Positions 2,703-57,456 of a stretch of 64,000 nt of DNA are shown here, piece by piece. Source of the stretch: Lingula anatina. Its lineage: Eukaryota; Animalia; Brachiopoda. The notes below the pieces were generated by a model. That model saw only the letters and a list, made by a program, of their open reading frames with translations. It was not told the DNA's origin and did not search any database. The stretch lies in the NCBI GenBank assembly GCA_051362555.1, contig CM120641.1:38074401-38138400 (forward strand), given 5' to 3'. Within the stretch, counting starts at the first letter, position 1, and every line of letters begins with the position of its first letter. A program made the translations under genes and the position numbers.

Positions 2703-5700
2703 GGGGGGGGGGGAGGGAGGGGAGGAGGGGGATCTTTTTGACCAATCTAAAGTTTTAAGACAGGACCATAAAATGAGGCAAAATAAGGTTTTATTATGCA
2801 TTCAGCCATCTAACTGTAAGCTTTCATACTATGCCTAATCAATTTAATTAGCAGTACTATACTTGAAGATAAACTGCTTTAGGGCTCCATGCCACATGAA
2901 CATGTAAACTCGTGTGGTTCTTCAACAAAACAATGAATAGACCAACGTACCTGACAGTAGAGCAGGCTTTCCCATACTGCGCCATGCAGAGTGGAATTGT
3001 ACCACGAATGACAAGTGGCTCCACCTGTTCACGGTCAATTTTCTGCTTCAAGTCTGCAAAGTGAAATGCAGCCACTGCAGCCCTGTTCAAGACAAAAATA
3101 ATGATTACAACTGATACAATAAACTAATATTTACAATAAATAAATATTAACAGAGGAAAGGACCCTAGCACTACTTGTAACAAGAAAAGTGAAAAAATAA
3201 CAATTTTTATCACCATTTTATCCAAAGCAACTATAGAAATTATCGATGATGAATTTGATCTATCATGGAAATCCCATCATCTTACCACAATTTTTTCAAC
3301 ACAAAAGTCACAATTAATGCAATATTTACTTACCTTGCTGACTGTTTGTCTGTAGGGCACCAGTAGCTTTGGTCCAATATGTAGTAATTGCTGTTGATAG
3401 ACAAGGAGCTTCTGCCACTGAGGTACACATACTTATTCCTGTAGTGTAAAATGAAATACAATATGTTTTCACCACAGCTTCATTTGTCCTATCACCACTG
3501 AATGGAAAAGACCACTACAATCCATTCATCAATTCAGCCAGAAAACAAGCAAGCAGTGACCAAATATGAAGAAATTTGAAGAAATATGAAGAAAAAAGAA
3601 GCACACAAAATATTCTTCAAAACAATATTTTCTATTGAATTCTGCAATTCCCCTTTCCAGACACAAAATCACACACCTAACAAAGTCAGTATTTGCATCA
3701 CTTGTTATTTACTCCTTTGTAGAGTTGCATGCACTTAACATTCTATGTGAGATTTAATGCATATGGTGATTACTCAATCTTTTCAATGGGGAAAAATTGT
3801 GAATTTTACAGACACTGTATTTCTTTAATCATAATTTCTTATAATTAAAACCTTCATATTGAGTGGTAACAACAAAATTCAAAAGCAGGCTACTCTGGAG
3901 TTGTACTGTATGCAGTACAAGTACTACAAATGCTACATAAAAATAAAATTTTTGTGATTATAAAATCATGAACCTGCAAGTTTGATCATTTTTGCCCAAT
4001 GAAAAGATCGAGTAATAACTGTACATAATTTTGCCAAATATGAGTGTCAAACTTCTTCACTTATACTGTTAAGCATAATCCTAATATATACTAATTTAAA
4101 ACATCACTTACAGAAATACCAAAGAGCATCACTTCTTCTCTTTAAGCACATCTGGGTATATTTAGTAAGCATGAATGAAATCTGATTTGATCATTAAACT
4201 TAGGTTGACCAAGGAGTTATAACTCCTTGGGTTGACATAAGTCACTTTTGATACAAAAGAAAGTTGAGCTTTCTCTGTGAGATTAATGTCTGTATTGGAG
4301 GATGTCTTTAATAACATATTATTTGGAAACCTGGTTTTATTCATAATGAAACTGTAAATACCAGTATTCCCTCTATTTTAAGCTTCTTTCACACGTACAG
4401 CATTAAATGTGCTTGCTTGTAACCCAAAAGCAGAAACAGTATGACTTTGGGACCATTCCCACAGATTTTTGGATCGATCTATCTCCCTGGAGAGTCTCAC
4501 TATAATTTCTGTCAACGTAATAATTAAATAATTTAATCCGGCTTAAATGTCTGGGGGTAATTATCTTTACCCTCTAGCTGATTCTGTAGGCCTGACAGAC
4601 ATTTTAGCAGGTTAGTTGAGAGCTATTTAGTGAGACTCCCCAGGGAGTTAGACCGATCCAGATGGATCAATCTAGGCATGGGAACCCAGTCTTAGAGACT
4701 ACATAGTCAGCACCCTGCTATGTGAATGCTTACCACCAGTCAGTGACCCAGTTGTCTGCCCACCAGGATTTAAGAATCAGAGTGTGCTGAAGTTTCTTAC
4801 CGATGCCTTTCTCAAACTCCTGCAACAAATAGGATGCATGAAGCCTTATCATCATTGTTAATGTTTGCATGCAAAAGCCAAGTTAGATACATGTGCATGC
4901 ACAAGCATGTCCACACACTTAGTTTATGTCCAGTTACTTTGATTGCAATTTGAAGATAAAATGTGCTTCTGATCACTTACCTGTCATATACATGTTGCAT
5001 ATACCTGGGAGATGAGCAGTTAAGATAATTACTGACCGCAATTAATCAAAGATGACTAGAGGCCAGGCCTTTGTTTTGGCAACATGCCACTTACCTGAAA
5101 TTATCCTACACAGGTATGTCCTGGTTCAGAGATTAACAGTAAAGATTATTTAGGTCAAATTATATTCATAGATGGAGGTGATATAGAAGTAACTTTTCTC
5201 CGAGCAAAGGACAAGTCAAAAACACTATTTGCCTTTCCTTCTCAAGAAGACAGCGTGGATTTCCAATGACCAAATTATCAAACTTTTACCATTCCCTGTG
5301 ATGGACCAACGCCAGAGATACAAATTCTCTGTTGATCTTAATGTGTCAGAATAAAAACAAACTGTTTAAACTTTAGCATGAAAAAAAAAAGACTTTTAAA
5401 ATGTAGATATTCTGAATGAGCATTCAACACAGCATTTTAAACAATGACTTTATCAGAACGCAAGGAATCTCTTATTCCTGAAAGTGTACACTGTAGTTGA
5501 TTTTTGTAATTTGAAATAGCTCACAAAAATATTTGAGTTGACGTCAAAAATAACTTTCTATTATGTATATATTTAGTAAATAGTTAACTTTAACCATGAA
5601 TCAATGATTAATTGGACTTTTTTAATGGCTTCTGTGTAAGTTTTGCACTGTGGACAAATTTTCCGTCCGTAATTTTCCGTCCGTAATCTGACATGATTTT

Positions 5701-46001: not shown

Positions 46002-50953
<4,952 letters not shown>

Positions 50954-51711
50954 GAACAATCATGCTCAATTAAATTTAGGTTTCCTAATGGATGCTGGAA
51001 GAAACTGCAACCTAAAGTGTTTGGTTTTTAAACTTTATTTTTTAAAATCAGTGACTACTGTGTCAACCAGTTAAAGATCAAAAAAGTAATTATTTTGAAA
51101 TTGTAGATCAAAAGCTGTACTTTTTTAGATGAAGTTTGGATTTTCATACAAGCCATGATCATTCTAAATTTGCTGGTCAAATAAATGTTGAATTTCAGCA
51201 TTTTTGCAGCTATTCTTGTTTTCATTTACTTTAAAAGGTGGGTGTGTGTATCTTGAGAACTGATACCTCTTGACCCCTTTCAATGTGTTACGTTTACTGA
51301 GTGGCTTTGTTTGGTTATGAGGCAGGTTGCTTTCGAAAATCGGCACAATCAATTTACATTTACGGTAATTACTCTCCTTTTTTTTTTTTTTTTTTTTTTG
51401 TGAAGTTTCCATTTTTCACACATAAGCATTTTCAGTGGCTTTTAAATCCCATGGAACTGAATCACTTGCTAGCTTTTCAATGTCTATGTTACCTGTTGTA
51501 CATAATGTAAGAGGGTAAGAGTGATTATCCTGTTTTAACGCATTATGTAACAGTGGATCAAAATTTGCCAAAACATTATTCTGTGCACTTTTCTGTATGC
51601 TCTCTGAACATTTGACAGCTTTGCTGCCCTGTTTCCTGTATGGTGTCTGCATATTTGCCAGCTTTGCTATTTAGTTAAAGAAGATTTTAATGTTTATTCC
51701 CATAAATTTAC

Positions 51712-52130
51712 TTTGCTTTGGGGCAGAAGAAAAGCTCCTGTGGGGTTTGTTGTCCAAGACCCCATTCCCAGAGATTAGATCGATCCGAACTAGATCGACC
51801 TAACTCCCTGGGGGTTCACACTAAATAGCTGTCAGCCGAGCGGGCATGAAAGTTAATTAACCCCTTACAGCTTGTAGTAGGCGGGAAGGACATTTAAGCC
51901 GGATTATCTGACAGTAAACTAGTGAGACTCCCTACGGGTATAGATCGATCTAAATGTCTGGGAATACGCCCTAAATCCAAACAGTCTTCGCCCAGTATGG
52001 ATCCTGCAAACAAATGAAAGTGGTATTTTTTTTCCCATTCTTCAAGAATATCTTAAAGAAATTCCGTCCAAAAGCTGTAGACACTTCTAAATATCTTTAA
52101 TTTTCTTAAAAAAAGAAACTCCTTGCAAGG
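51712..52130 (-). pseudogene. Decayed partial duplicate of the D-amino-acid oxidase gene: exon-3 copy interrupted by a MITE, with possible scraps of exon 2 and the exon 1/intron 1 junction
   Basis: 51712-52003, minus the MITE and target-site duplication, is a 75-nt copy of the 77-nt exon 55353-55429 with acceptor and donor retained and a 2-nt deletion. Weak collinear similarity at ~52053-52084 and ~52106-52129. Confidence 0.8.
51758..51971. mobile_element. PIF/Harbinger-like MITE (214 bp) with 3-bp TAA/CAA target-site duplication
   Basis: Terminal inverted repeats gaccccattcccaga / tctgggaatacgccc, flanked by caa (51755-57) and taa (51972-74). Removing the element and one flank copy restores GGA TTT AGA of the host exon. 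Confidence 0.85.
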
Positions 52131-52830: not shown

Positions 52831-55800
52831 TTAAAGTTTGGACACCACACTAGTGCCACCTATTGAGTGGGCCACTAATTTTGCTGCTTCTTTTGCACAT
52901 CCCCAGTGAGTTGTGATACCACCACCTCCATGACCGTAGTTGTAAACAATCTGAAATGGGGGAAAAAATTGATTTGAAGAACTCTGTTATTATCTTGTGA
53001 TGGATCGGAGTTCTTATTACCTAAATTTAAATGATAATTTTCCATGGCATTATGTGATTGATTTCTTGGTCACTCCAAAAATCTTGAACTTACTAAGAAA
53101 GCAAACCACTTTCTATAAACAGTATCAAAGTAGGACACTGTACTGTACCTTCAGCAGTTTTCCATCAAAAACCTTTTCTTCTTTCTCCAGCCGAATACCA
53201 GCCGACCTAGAAGGTCTCAGTCCAGCCCACTGTCCTTTGATTTCAGCATGCTGGGGGGAAAACTCATTATTTGATTAAACAAAGCAATAATTGACAATGC
53301 TAACTGTTAAGTAAGTAAATGTTTAACTGGCATCCCTTAGTGTGTAACTAATCTTGGCATTTTCTGAACATTCTTGAAATTATTTCATTAAATAGTGATC
53401 TCACCTTCAAACTGGGGATTAATTCACAACAGCTCTTCAAGATGAATATGCCATCCTGTACATCTACTTCTGTATTCCAGTCTCCAGTCTGATGTGTTCC
53501 ACCAAGTTTTACTTCATTCAGTCTGAAATAAGTATTTCATTATTTCCCCTTAAATTTGTTCTTTTATCTTTGTTCAACAAAAGATTCCAGTATTATCCAT
53601 GTTAAAATTTGACTTCAAAGCAATATTTTAAGGAGGAATTTAGTAAAGTAACTCACCCTGGAAATATATAAGTGCTGTTCCCAATACCGTAAAAATTTTT
53701 TATCCATGGTGCATTAACCTATTGGAATGAAGACAAATTTTAGCAAAGATATTGTGAACACTTTCTGTGACCTTCCTGAAAAGTTTTTACAGCTATGACA
53801 CTAACTTGATTTTTTCAATGTGAAAAATTGTGAATTTTACAGATACTGTTTTAAGTCATAAATTAGAAAATACAATAATACACTTGCCATGTAATACTCA
53901 AAATTCAAAGCTGTTTTTTTAAACTGTTTATCGCTCTTGCAATTTCAATTTCTTGTGGCTACAGGTATAATGAGAAAGTGATCAAAAACATAAATATATA
54001 AACTTGCTTACCCTGGAAGCATATAATTGAAAGAAGTTTTAGTACTATGTACTAGAAAATGCTTCAACCAAGGTGCATGGGCCTAAAATATAAAAACAGC
54101 ACTTCAATGCTGGATTTTAAGTGTACTGTGGATAGCACATGTACTAGTATTAGGTTGGTGGTAATGCTTCTTTAAATGTGGAAATACCCTGAATGTATTT
54201 TTGAGTGTTTATTAAAGGCTAATTTTGTAACTGACTGACAATGCCTCAAGCACTTTCATTATACCTGATATAAAGAGAAATGAAGAGATATTTGAAGCCA
54301 GTAATACACACACACACACACCTTGATCAACTGTCCTCTAACAGGTACAACATCTGCATCTCCCACTAGCTCTCTTGCACCAAGACCAGTGCAGATGACA
54401 GCCACATCAAAATCATATGCAAGCTACAACAAAATAACTTTCCACAATACATGATAATTTTCATGATGATATAATGTTTGTTTTCTTGAAACTGTTCATG
54501 CAATTTTTTGCAATTAAAGAGATAACTGTTCACTGATTATTGTTTAAAAATCAATATGAAGAATAAGAATAATGAAAATCGTGAGATAGAATCAAAGTCA
54601 ATTTAATACCTCTTCCAAGGTTTTGATTTTCTTCTTCAATACTTTACCATTCCTGCTTTCAAACCTGAAATTTACCGGATTGCTACAGAGTTAAGGAAAG
54701 TGCCAAGAAAAGAGGAACAAAGGTAGTCACAGAGAAATTGGCTGAGTATTTTTTTTTTTTTTTTTTTAGGAAAACCCAACGCTTTGCACCTTGCACATTG
54801 GTTCTGATGTAAAAGATTAAAAACCTTCTCTAAAACTATGTTCAATATGAAAAGCCATTTCACAATAATTTTGAACAGTAATTTCACAGCTGGCTTTAAT
54901 GTCATGATATCATCACAGCATGGTAATTACATTTTACCTTTTCAAAAGCCATCTTAAGTACATACTTGTTTCAACCTTGATAGTGGTGTAAAACCAACCA
55001 TGTCTGGAATATATGACATGCATGAAGATTATCAAAAAAAAAAATCAGTCATTAACAAAGATCAAATAAACAACCAGGTAACTGATAAATAGGAAAGCCA
55101 CAACAATTCATTAAATATAATTATAGAATTATCAAAGAGACTGTGCATATTTATTTGTCAAAATGCATTTTCCTTGAGTAAGACATTTTTCCTAATCACA
55201 AATTATTTCTCAACCTGTCCCTACACTTGGATTTCATGCTTCATTCCATTTTTAATTTAATACCTTAGTGCAACTTATATTATAACTGACCATTTATTTA
55301 TTTATTCATTTTTTTTAAGAAAAAAATTCAATTTTTATTTGTAAAAATTTACTTTGCTTTGGGGTAGAAAGAAAGCTCCTGTGGACTTAGATGCCTAAAT
55401 CCAAACACAGTCTTTGACCAATATGGATCCTGCAAACAAATGCAAGTGATATTTCAATTGTCAAATATCTGAACTAACACTCAGAGCTGCATTATAAATG
55501 TACCAGTATTGGTAATAAATATATTCTTGGTACCAGTTATAATGCAATTTGAAATAGTTTAAATCCAAATCTTCTTCACCCCTTACATCTATATTTTCCA
55601 CAAAAAGTTATGCTCTTTTAAATGCACATTGAGGACCTGGATACTAAAAAAATAAACCATAGACATTATAGTATTCCTAGATTGAAAAAAAAAGCAATGC
55701 ATCTGGTTGTACCATTCATGAAGGGCAATTAACATTGCCATATTAACCTACATGCAGTTACTGTAAATACATGTAAATACATGTACATGCTATGTACAGA

Positions 55801-56591
55801 TCCACAACTTAACTCAAACTTTCAAAGCCAATTTTACAAAAAAAGTCCAACTGCAAATTAATTGCCCCATAGCATATGTTAGTGTTTTGTGTTACCTTAA
55901 CCCAGCCTTAAAAATCTGAGAAATTTTATATGAAGTTTCAAAACTTTTTACTAAAAATGAAAAATGCCATGCCTCTCTAAAATCATCCATCCAAAAGAAT
56001 CCAGACAACAAGCCAACTCCAATCTCCCCAGCCCTCTCACCTCTGAGTAAATCTAACAAATGGTAAAAGGTGCTATCTGACCATTGCCTAAAATTGGAAA
56101 CTACATGTATTTATTCTACAAAAATAAAACATAATTGACTAATTTGATCTACCAAAATTGTAAAAGGTGAATGACTGATCTCAAATGTAACTTAATTTAT
56201 TGGTGGAAATATTTTGTACACAAATGTGCAATGTTGTAAGAGAATAAAGCTTATCATGACATGATACTGTTTAAGAAAAAATACAAATCTGTTTTTAACA
56301 AGTCTCAACTTTGAAAGTAATTCAACAACAAATTCATGACTTAAATTCATGTAAATCACACTAAAAGAAAAATTAAAAAAAGAAAAAAAACCTTTGCAAG
56401 TGGAGTGGTGTGTTTCCCAAAACATGTGGTTCCCAAAACCCTCCAGATCCATCACTAGTAGTCTCTGGGGAAAACTTCTCAGATATCAGTGTAACTCCAA
56501 CACTGGATGGAACACTTTCTGCAATGCATAGTGCCGTAGACAGTCCAACCACGCCCCCTCCGATGACAGCTACATTGATTTTCTTTTCCAT
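52831..56591 (-). CDS. DAO: D-amino-acid oxidase / D-aspartate oxidase family flavoenzyme, peroxisomal (C-terminal SKL)
   Basis: Exons 56392-56591 ([20 protein letters not shown]...[13 protein letters not shown]), 55973-56087, 55353-55429 ([12 protein letters not shown]), 54938-55003 (HGWFYTT), 54610-54664, 54322-54423 ([12 protein letters not shown]...PVRGQ), either 54012-54082 or 53657-53718, 53405-53522 ([11 protein letters not shown]), 53149-53250 (WAGLRPSR), 52831-52950 ([16 protein letters not shown]...SKL*). DAO versus DDO orthology is unresolved. Confidence 0.93.
53657..53718 (-). CDS. DAO: Oxidase alternative exon 7B ([21 protein letters not shown]), 62 nt, phase 0-2
   Basis: cttcattccaatag acceptor, gg|gtgagt donor, open frame, homologous to exon 7A. 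Confidence 0.85.
54012..54082 (-). CDS. DAO: Oxidase alternative exon 7A ([24 protein letters not shown]), 71 nt, phase 0-2
   Basis: ttttatattttag acceptor, gg|gtaagc donor, open frame, homologous to exon 7B. Confidence 0.85.
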
Positions 56592-57149
56592 CCTATAGCT
56601 GTACATCGCACCACATAAAATATATTTATTATAATTTATTGAGCATTAAAATGTGTACAGTTACATTTTACAAGCTCTCTAAACTACAGTTTTACATAAA
56701 TTGTGCACATAAGCTTAAATAAGTATAACTACTTTAGATCATTCAAATACCAAAATACATACAGTACTGTATATAAGCTAACTACTTCATAAGTGATATA
56801 TGAATATAATATAAAATATAAGTGAATAGTAAAATGTAAGGAGTGTCCACGCTCAACTGTCACCTTGATTGGTTAATCAATCCGGAAAACTGACCTTAAA
56901 ACCTCGGGAAACGTCTTTAGAACACCATTCCTGTGTGGGAATGTCTACAATTTACAAAAATGTCGAAATTGAATCAATTAAATTTACATGCACACGCCTC
57001 CTTGCAGTTGAGGCTTCACTAGAGCAAAGTACACATGGGTAATGCAGACAATTACGGAAAGAGAAAACCTCATCCACAGTGTATAAGGTAGGCTACCAAA
57101 ATATTTTTACAAAGGAATGAATTTAAGTTAAACTTGTGTGATATAGTAC

Positions 57150-57456
57150 CTTTGACAAGGAGATCGGTGTGTCGGTCCAAGTCTTCCGATAATGTTTTCC
57201 GAAGCGAGGCAATACGGCGGAGGTCATGTTTGGGAGCATTTTGCATTTATATTCATTGTTCCCTGCTATCAAGACGTTCATTTTTGTTAAATTTCAAAGT
57301 CAAAGAAACGGTTAGTATTTTTTCATTAAAATAAAACTACATTTTTATAGAGTTTGATATGATATATAATAACGAAACAATACTGCACTATTGCACACAA
57401 CTCCGTGTAAAGGGAGCACGTTTGTCATTGGTACTTTCGGCACTTTGATCAGCAAG
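57150..57456. promoter_or_regulatory. Candidate shared promoter region of the oxidase (-) and MICOS13 (+), including a probable non-coding oxidase first exon
   Basis: CpG-enriched stretch. Minus-strand donor caaag|gtacta near 57150 and acceptor tatag| immediately before the oxidase ATG. Confidence 0.5.

Follow-up and report, generated by a model that had tools for sequence, protein, structure and literature searches.

Analysis of a 64,000-nucleotide stretch of Lingula anatina DNA (hereafter, the window) revealed a gene of the D-amino-acid oxidase (DAO)/D-aspartate oxidase (DDO) family in which two homologous neighboring exons, 7A (54012–54082) and 7B (53657–53718), are each spliced into RNA. 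The best explanation is that one gene, through splicing of either exon, probably gives two oxidases whose substrate pockets are tuned in size and access among non-acidic D-amino acids.

The gene is encoded on the minus strand, as are all features below unless indicated otherwise, and its coding exons span 56591 to 52831. Coding exon 1 (56392–56591) contains the ATG, the FAD-binding GxGxxG motif and the pocket residues Phe52, Glu54 and His56 shared by both forms; its boundary with exon 2 was inferred from the frame and the RefSeq protein, the joint being absent among the listed read joints. Exons 2 (55973–56087), 3 (55353–55429), 4 (54938–55003) and 5 (54610–54664) were placed by reads and frame, and exon 2 is followed by a GC-AG intron. 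Exon 6 (54322–54423) provides the common donor to 7A, to 7B and for the skip to exon 8 (53405–53522), which provides the common acceptor and encodes His239 at the position of DDO Arg237. Exon 9 (53149–53250) encodes Arg280, the equivalent of DAO Arg283 and DDO Arg278, and the last coding exon (52831–52950) ends in a C-terminal SKL, which we take to be a PTS1-type peroxisomal signal.

Several other features were observed around these exons. Intron 2 (55430–55972) has a GC donor, and its 543-nt joint is present in RNA reads. RefSeq isoforms X1 and X2 contain a 63-aa N-terminal extension, of low model confidence, from upstream exons (window 56599–57281), and an upstream 296-nt intron (56599–56894) is supported by 6 reads of run X1. 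A degenerate second copy of exon 3 and flanking intron (51686–51743 and 51970–52028; 84–88% identical) is located about 800 nt beyond the stop codon in the same orientation, interrupted by an insert of about 226 nt. On the plus strand, open frames at 49159–50953 belong to a probable neighboring gene directed towards the oxidase 3' end.

Re-derivation of the exon pair reproduced what the first-pass annotation had described: the coordinates and lengths (71 nt for 7A, residues 206–229; 62 nt for 7B, residues 206–226), the AG acceptors, the donors gtaagc and gtgagt, and phase 0-2 in both, with the APW.K.F and Y..PG anchors kept in 7A and 7B alike. Their alignment score was 49, compared with a maximum of 37 among 2000 random 71-mers from the window; 7A and 7B are homologous tandem copies of one exon. 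Being adjacent and homologous, with equal phases and equal length modulo 3, they have the arrangement by which mutually exclusive exons are defined. No third lid exon was found among the 2934 stop-to-stop segments of the window with a lid profile built with 7A and 7B included, which recovered only those two. The reading frame is open with 7A (341 aa) and with 7B (338 aa), whereas inclusion of both exons leads to a stop at codon 235, 263 nt ahead of the last junction, and omission of both leads to a stop at codon 208.

Junction reads were taken from eight of nine RNA runs chosen by species label (X6 was left out), which came from three studies and of which about 6–30% each was read; the figures are reads rather than molecules, some of which may be counted double as mates or duplicates, and joints falling under the listing threshold do not appear. 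Across the eight runs, 16 reads joined exon 6 to 7A and 15 joined 7A to exon 8, while 22 joined exon 6 to 7B and 28 joined 7B to exon 8, giving totals of 31 for the 7A form and 50 for the 7B form. Joints of 7B were present in all eight runs and those of 7A in seven. Neither exon is therefore one that is never spliced in, the outcome that had been named in advance as telling against the exon pair. All four productive joints anticipated by the first-pass annotation were present; the 7A–7B joint (54012 to 53718), for which it had predicted depletion, was scarcer than these yet not absent, with 5 reads in runs X4 and X7, and the joint from exon 6 to exon 8 likewise had 5 reads, in runs X5 and X9. 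Productive joints thus accounted for 81 of 91 junction reads and unproductive joints for 10, and 5 of the 20 reads leaving the 7A donor continued into 7B. Mutual exclusion of 7A and 7B appears real but is leaky, and the statement that exactly one of them must be used, although correct for a full-length protein in view of the frames, does not extend to splicing itself, since both unproductive joints occur. The 7A:7B ratio differed between runs (permutation p ~0.016; 9:9 in X7, 0:11 in X8), but a regulated ratio is not claimed because the reads are non-independent and the runs carry no tissue labels. Within the 7A–7B intron, a dispersed repeat of about 45 nt (53805–53853; further copy near 3777–3821) draws reads of unrelated transcripts with loose ends on both sides.

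The same reads contained allelic differences. Reads of runs X7–X9 were mostly 90–99% alike to the window and probably derive from another population; in these runs 7A has Leu215>Val and 7B has Tyr215>His. No indel was listed within 7A or 7B in the reads of the eight runs. The window protein differs from the RefSeq allele at 10–11 residues, and both frames are intact in each. Allelic replacements affected 5 of 45 lid-exon residues versus 8 of 317 elsewhere (Fisher p 0.014); faster evolution specific to the lid exons was rejected, as 5 of the 8 other replacements sit in exon 8. On comparison of these sequences, the allelic lid differences, including Tyr215 to His, fit relaxed constraint as well as tuning.

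Steric or U2/U12-type exclusion was rejected as the basis of exclusivity, because the 293-nt GT-AG intron between 7A and 7B (53719–54011) is long enough and was seen spliced, being removed in the 5 reads of double inclusion. A stop codon well upstream of the last junction subjects a transcript to nonsense-mediated decay; the early stops of the frameshifted products precede the last junction by more than 200 nt, which makes this pathway a likely filter, and part of the exclusivity is likely imposed after splicing, by decay of these products. Two candidate RNA stems were found and are treated as leads only. The stem around 7A (53962–54267) has perfect 12-nt arms at 54256–54267 and 53962–53973 and was the best among 9 exons (z −2.9, 1 of 60 shuffles), but an equally long perfect inverted repeat occurs in 20 of 105 window tiles. 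In the stem at 7B (53594–53751), the 7B acceptor (53714–53751) pairs with the downstream intron (53594–53631), a pairing reached by 1 of 500 shuffles with a hand-picked arm and by 6 of 60 in a uniform test. On hand-picked windows the two stems gave z of about −2.1 and −2.2. They enclose the exons separately and have no common arm.

The two unproductive joints, with 5 reads each, and candidate stems that could hide each exon separately would suit a gene in which only one form is a working enzyme, the other exon serving as a dimmer that either yields a protein of little or no activity or directs transcripts to decay via double inclusion or skipping; activity is also lost in lid deletions of mammalian DAO, according to PMC6003678. 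We regard this as most improbable, since both exons retain the APW.K.F and Y..PG anchors, the two forms are predicted to fold with similar confidence, both productive forms are common, and a pure decay switch needs no conserved open frame in both exons.

The identity of the gene was established from protein comparisons. Exon 1 matched with 100% identity a protein labelled Lingula anatina "D-aspartate oxidase isoform X2", whose RefSeq cluster contains isoforms X1 and X3 with 7A and isoform X2 with 7B; automated annotation therefore already has both forms, and RefSeq models them without comment, a point missed by the first-pass annotation. Both RefSeq forms contain a full-length Pfam PF01266 domain (136 bits versus a cut-off of 27.9), and the best PDB sequence matches were human DDO (E 6e-90) and pig DAO (E 4e-81). 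AlphaFold models, built from the RefSeq alleles and not from the window sequence, had a mean pLDDT of 92.7 for the 7A form and 83.3 for the 7B form, the latter reduced by the 63-aa extension, and the 7A model superposed on DDO and DAO structures with TM 0.92–0.93. The equivalents of the substrate-binding residues Arg283, Tyr228 and Gly313 of DAO are present as Arg280, Tyr225 (7A) or Tyr222 (7B), and Gly311. In a tree of 65 proteins computed with the swapped exon removed, the vertebrate DAO and DDO clades were each supported at 100/100 and the Lingula gene fell in neither; its nearest deep forks were without support. As judged from these comparisons, the gene is a DAO/DDO-family flavoenzyme gene with predicted D-amino-acid oxidase activity. 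Protein search also recovered a second, distant DAO-like gene of Lingula (P0028).

To place the swapped exon in the enzyme, we refer to what PMC6279847 and PMC8260693 describe for human DAO: the side-chain pocket consists of Leu51, Gln53, Leu215 and Ile230, the substrate carboxylate is held by Tyr228 and Arg283, and the lid is the loop 216–228, which includes Tyr224. In DDO, as reported in the latter source, the acidic side chain is bound by Arg216, the entrance is gated by Arg237 and His54, and the R216Q change confers D-Ala oxidation, so that change at the Arg216 position shifts specificity. The swapped exon aligns to the pocket strand, loop 216–228 and Tyr228 of mammalian DAO, and we infer that it supplies two of the four specificity-pocket positions (Leu215/Arg216 and Ile230), the carboxylate-binding Tyr and a hairpin tip at the entrance. 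In the alignment, the 215/216 position is Val (Val216) in 7A and Gly (Gly216) in 7B, and the Ile230 position is Leu (Leu227) in 7A and Phe (Phe224) in 7B, while the Tyr228 equivalent is kept in both. The remaining pocket residues are common to both forms: Phe52, Glu54 at the Gln53 position, His56 corresponding to DDO His54, His239 corresponding to DDO Arg237, and Arg280. The segment is 24 residues long in 7A and 21 in 7B, versus 27–28 for the four vertebrate DAOs and 22 for the four DDOs compared, and neither exon contains the Tyr224-gate segment of vertebrate DAO. In both AlphaFold models the exon falls on a beta-hairpin, whose turn has 4 residues in 7A (the longer tip) and 3 in 7B. The term "active-site lid" applied earlier to the exons is thus apt as to position, since they map to loop 216–228 and Tyr228, but it overstates the segment, because both exons are short compared with 27–28 residues and form only a short hairpin tip, not a long lid with a Tyr224 gate.

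The first-pass annotation had gone further and proposed that one gene performs by splicing the division between DAO and DDO; taken literally, one form would oxidize D-amino acids that are neutral or basic and the other would act on D-Asp or D-Glu. The 7B exon does resemble DDO in length (21 versus 22 residues) and in its aromatic residue at the Ile230 position, His56 equals DDO His54, and human DDO is the top PDB sequence match. Nevertheless, the residue at the 216 position is Val or Gly, and Arg occurs there in 0 of 24 variants from all species compared versus all four vertebrate DDOs; both forms have His at the Arg237 position; neither form has the 27–28-residue segment; and the gene falls outside both vertebrate clades. 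Glu54 at the Gln53 position, present in both forms, would moreover disfavor acidic substrates. Given the lack of Arg216 and Arg237 together with a pocket Glu, a D-Asp-specific form appears unlikely; the literal division found no support, and we consider it quite improbable. Nor do the two key arginines support the name "D-aspartate oxidase" that databases give these invertebrate genes.

In the preferred explanation, pocket tuning among non-acidic substrates, the two products would likely both be peroxisomal and share a catalytic core, with a predicted difference in side-chain pocket size and access. The 7A form, with Val216, Leu227 and the longer tip, would have a tighter pocket suited to substrates that are small and neutral, for example D-Ala, D-Ser and D-Pro, and the 7B form, with Gly216, Phe224 and the shorter tip, a more open pocket suited to those that are bulky or basic; D-Asp specificity is predicted for neither. 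Which substrates belong to which form is a prediction extrapolated from mammalian enzymes.

Next, we compared the segment among 25 protein clusters of the family, picked partly for isoform labels, of which 21 had at least two members. Isoform sets identical except in this segment were found in 9 of the 21, a proportion that is not a frequency because of this selection, with two to four variants each. Two variants were present in the isoform sets of Lingula (RefSeq), Dreissena, Mercenaria and the hybrid Branchiostoma floridae x japonicum, and in Mya arenaria, where they are split over two clusters and were compared directly; three were present in the sets of Amphiura and Acanthaster, and four in those of Patiria and Branchiostoma belcheri, the latter case repeated in a hybrid genome. 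The swap therefore spans four phyla, in a lamp shell, three clams, two starfish with a brittle star, and amphioxus, as judged from predicted proteins, and is newly described here. No other internal segment was exchanged for a homologous one in any isoform set of the 21 clusters. No swap was seen in the other 12 (two of Ostrea, two of Crassostrea virginica, Haliotis, the second Lingula gene, unionids, Apostichopus, Ptychodera, Stegodyphus, Mytilus and one Logan cluster); species other than Lingula are represented by predicted database proteins alone, in which a missing gene model does not equal a missing exon. The differing stretches begin and end at the exon limits of Lingula, and a deletion in a Ptychodera isoform ends at the same 5' boundary; we infer a tandem-exon basis of the swap in the heterodont clams, starfish, brittle star and amphioxus.

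Among the 24 variants from all species, the Tyr228 equivalent is conserved in 23, and the 216 position is variable. The sole exception, isoform X3 of Acanthaster (P0059), has His in place of the carboxylate-binding Tyr. In amphioxus isoform X1 (P0130 and P0157), Asp aligns with DDO Arg216, reversing the charge in a way that could favor basic D-amino acids, and Mercenaria isoform X1 has Asp at this position in one alignment of uncertain register. The hemichordates Glandiceps and Ptychodera contain several separate DAO-like genes (P0010, P0011, P0048, P0180, P0014, P0027 and P0217) with different loop segments, in which no swap was seen; these sequences possibly reflect gene duplication in place of exon duplication.

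Analysis of the origin of the exon copies showed that most variants in the clams (Mya, Dreissena and Mercenaria), the starfish (Acanthaster and Patiria) and Branchiostoma have their best match in another species; the duplications therefore predate splits within the heterodont clams, starfish and amphioxus, and were kept. A single clade of swap-bearing genes was rejected (AU p 3e-5), which excludes a separate swap-bearing subfamily and is compatible with one gain followed by many losses. The exon tree, which has only 25 columns and 1 starred branch among 31, grouped the seven starfish variants (94/98), a group that also takes in the long Apostichopus row, and placed amphioxus X2–X4 together; these groupings suggest lineage-specific duplications in some groups. 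In the same tree 7B was closest to amphioxus X1 and Mercenaria X1, without support.

These comparisons also bear on whether the swap affects specificity at all. Both forms may have about the same substrate range, with any difference confined to turnover, product release or stability, or with none at all, a small phase 0-2 duplicate being tolerated as decay clears the frameshifts. This would agree with the segment being the most length-variable part of the family alignment, with leaky splicing, with frequent allelic replacements in both exons and with the 12 of 21 multi-member clusters that show no swap, and product release of mammalian DAO is limited by loop motion, as PMC8260693 states. The conservation of variant classes across clam genera and across starfish, the confinement of recurrence to this one segment, and the exchange of Val for Gly at the main specificity position, which is a large change, speak against it, and we judge a shared range to be rather unlikely. 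The position of the segment in the pocket and its recurrence in four phyla point to function. Extending pocket tuning beyond Lingula, we tentatively consider that the pocket exon may serve as a cassette for specificity. Its duplication, in four or more phyla, would have happened either several times or a single time in an early bilaterian, and regulated splicing would draw from each gene two to four oxidases with different D-amino-acid ranges; this broader reading is plausible, though we would not lean on it.

Marine invertebrates hold large D-amino-acid stores and turn them over. According to PMC12259925, D-Ala is an osmolyte in bivalves, whose DAO genes are labelled only "DAO-like". If the cassette reading is true, splicing would give marine invertebrates a means of setting D-amino-acid specificity, comparable to the vertebrate solution of separate DAO and DDO genes. 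For enzymologists, the variants would be a natural experiment: about two dozen pocket-and-loop versions in otherwise identical backgrounds, at the very segment targeted by engineering of mammalian DAO. Edits of the mammalian lid alter activity across substrates, and its shortening or deletion mostly lowers or abolishes activity rather than switching it, as PMC6003678 reports. No description of alternative pocket exons in DAO or DDO was found in the literature searched, which mostly leaves out the subscription journals where invertebrate DAO work may appear.

Comparison with the vertebrate enzymes revealed likeness to each and membership in neither. With vertebrate DAO (PDB 1dao and 2du8) the Lingula protein shares the fold (TM ~0.93), the Tyr228, Arg283 and Gly313 equivalents and, in 7A, aliphatic residues at 215 and 230, whereas vertebrate DAO has a 27–28-residue segment with the Tyr224 gate instead of 24 or 21 residues, Gln53 is replaced by Glu, and the Lingula gene lies outside the DAO clade. 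With vertebrate DDO (PDB 6rkf), the best PDB match, it shares the His54 equivalent and the similarly short loop of 7B, but the Lingula forms have neither Arg216 nor Arg237 and lie outside the DDO clade. Human DAO has no splice variants in UniProt, and the known isoforms of human DDO are distinguished by skipping of exon 4 or by an extended N-terminus and not in the pocket, according to PMC8260693.

Splicing precedents are found in other enzymes. Homologous mutually exclusive exons in general have variable residues clustered at functional sites, which the pair described here resembles; the words "oxidase" and "amphioxus" do not occur in the main text of PMC7954323, the source of this generalization. 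The closest parallels come from PMC7434440, in which remodeling of a catalytic core by a splice switch is called rare and CYP4F3 and mrp-1 are cited. CYP4F3 is alike in that splicing switches the substrate preference of an oxidative enzyme, which for the Lingula oxidase is predicted only, and unlike in being a human P450 of unrelated fold with tissue-specific splicing; mrp-1, as cited there, is a precedent for repeated origin across invertebrate phyla. In coq-2, two mutually exclusive exons, 6a and 6e, remodel the enzyme core in helminths, molluscs and annelids, and here too a homologous internal exon pair in the catalytic core occurs in several invertebrate phyla, is absent from mammals and may have arisen once or repeatedly. 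The coq-2 switch was demonstrated by exon deletions and has two variants, whereas the swap described here is known in Lingula from sequence and RNA reads and concerns a flavin oxidase with two to four variants of unequal length, deuterostomes included. If the swap changes specificity, it would be another case of this rare core-remodeling splice switch, recurrent in four phyla at the same small exon.
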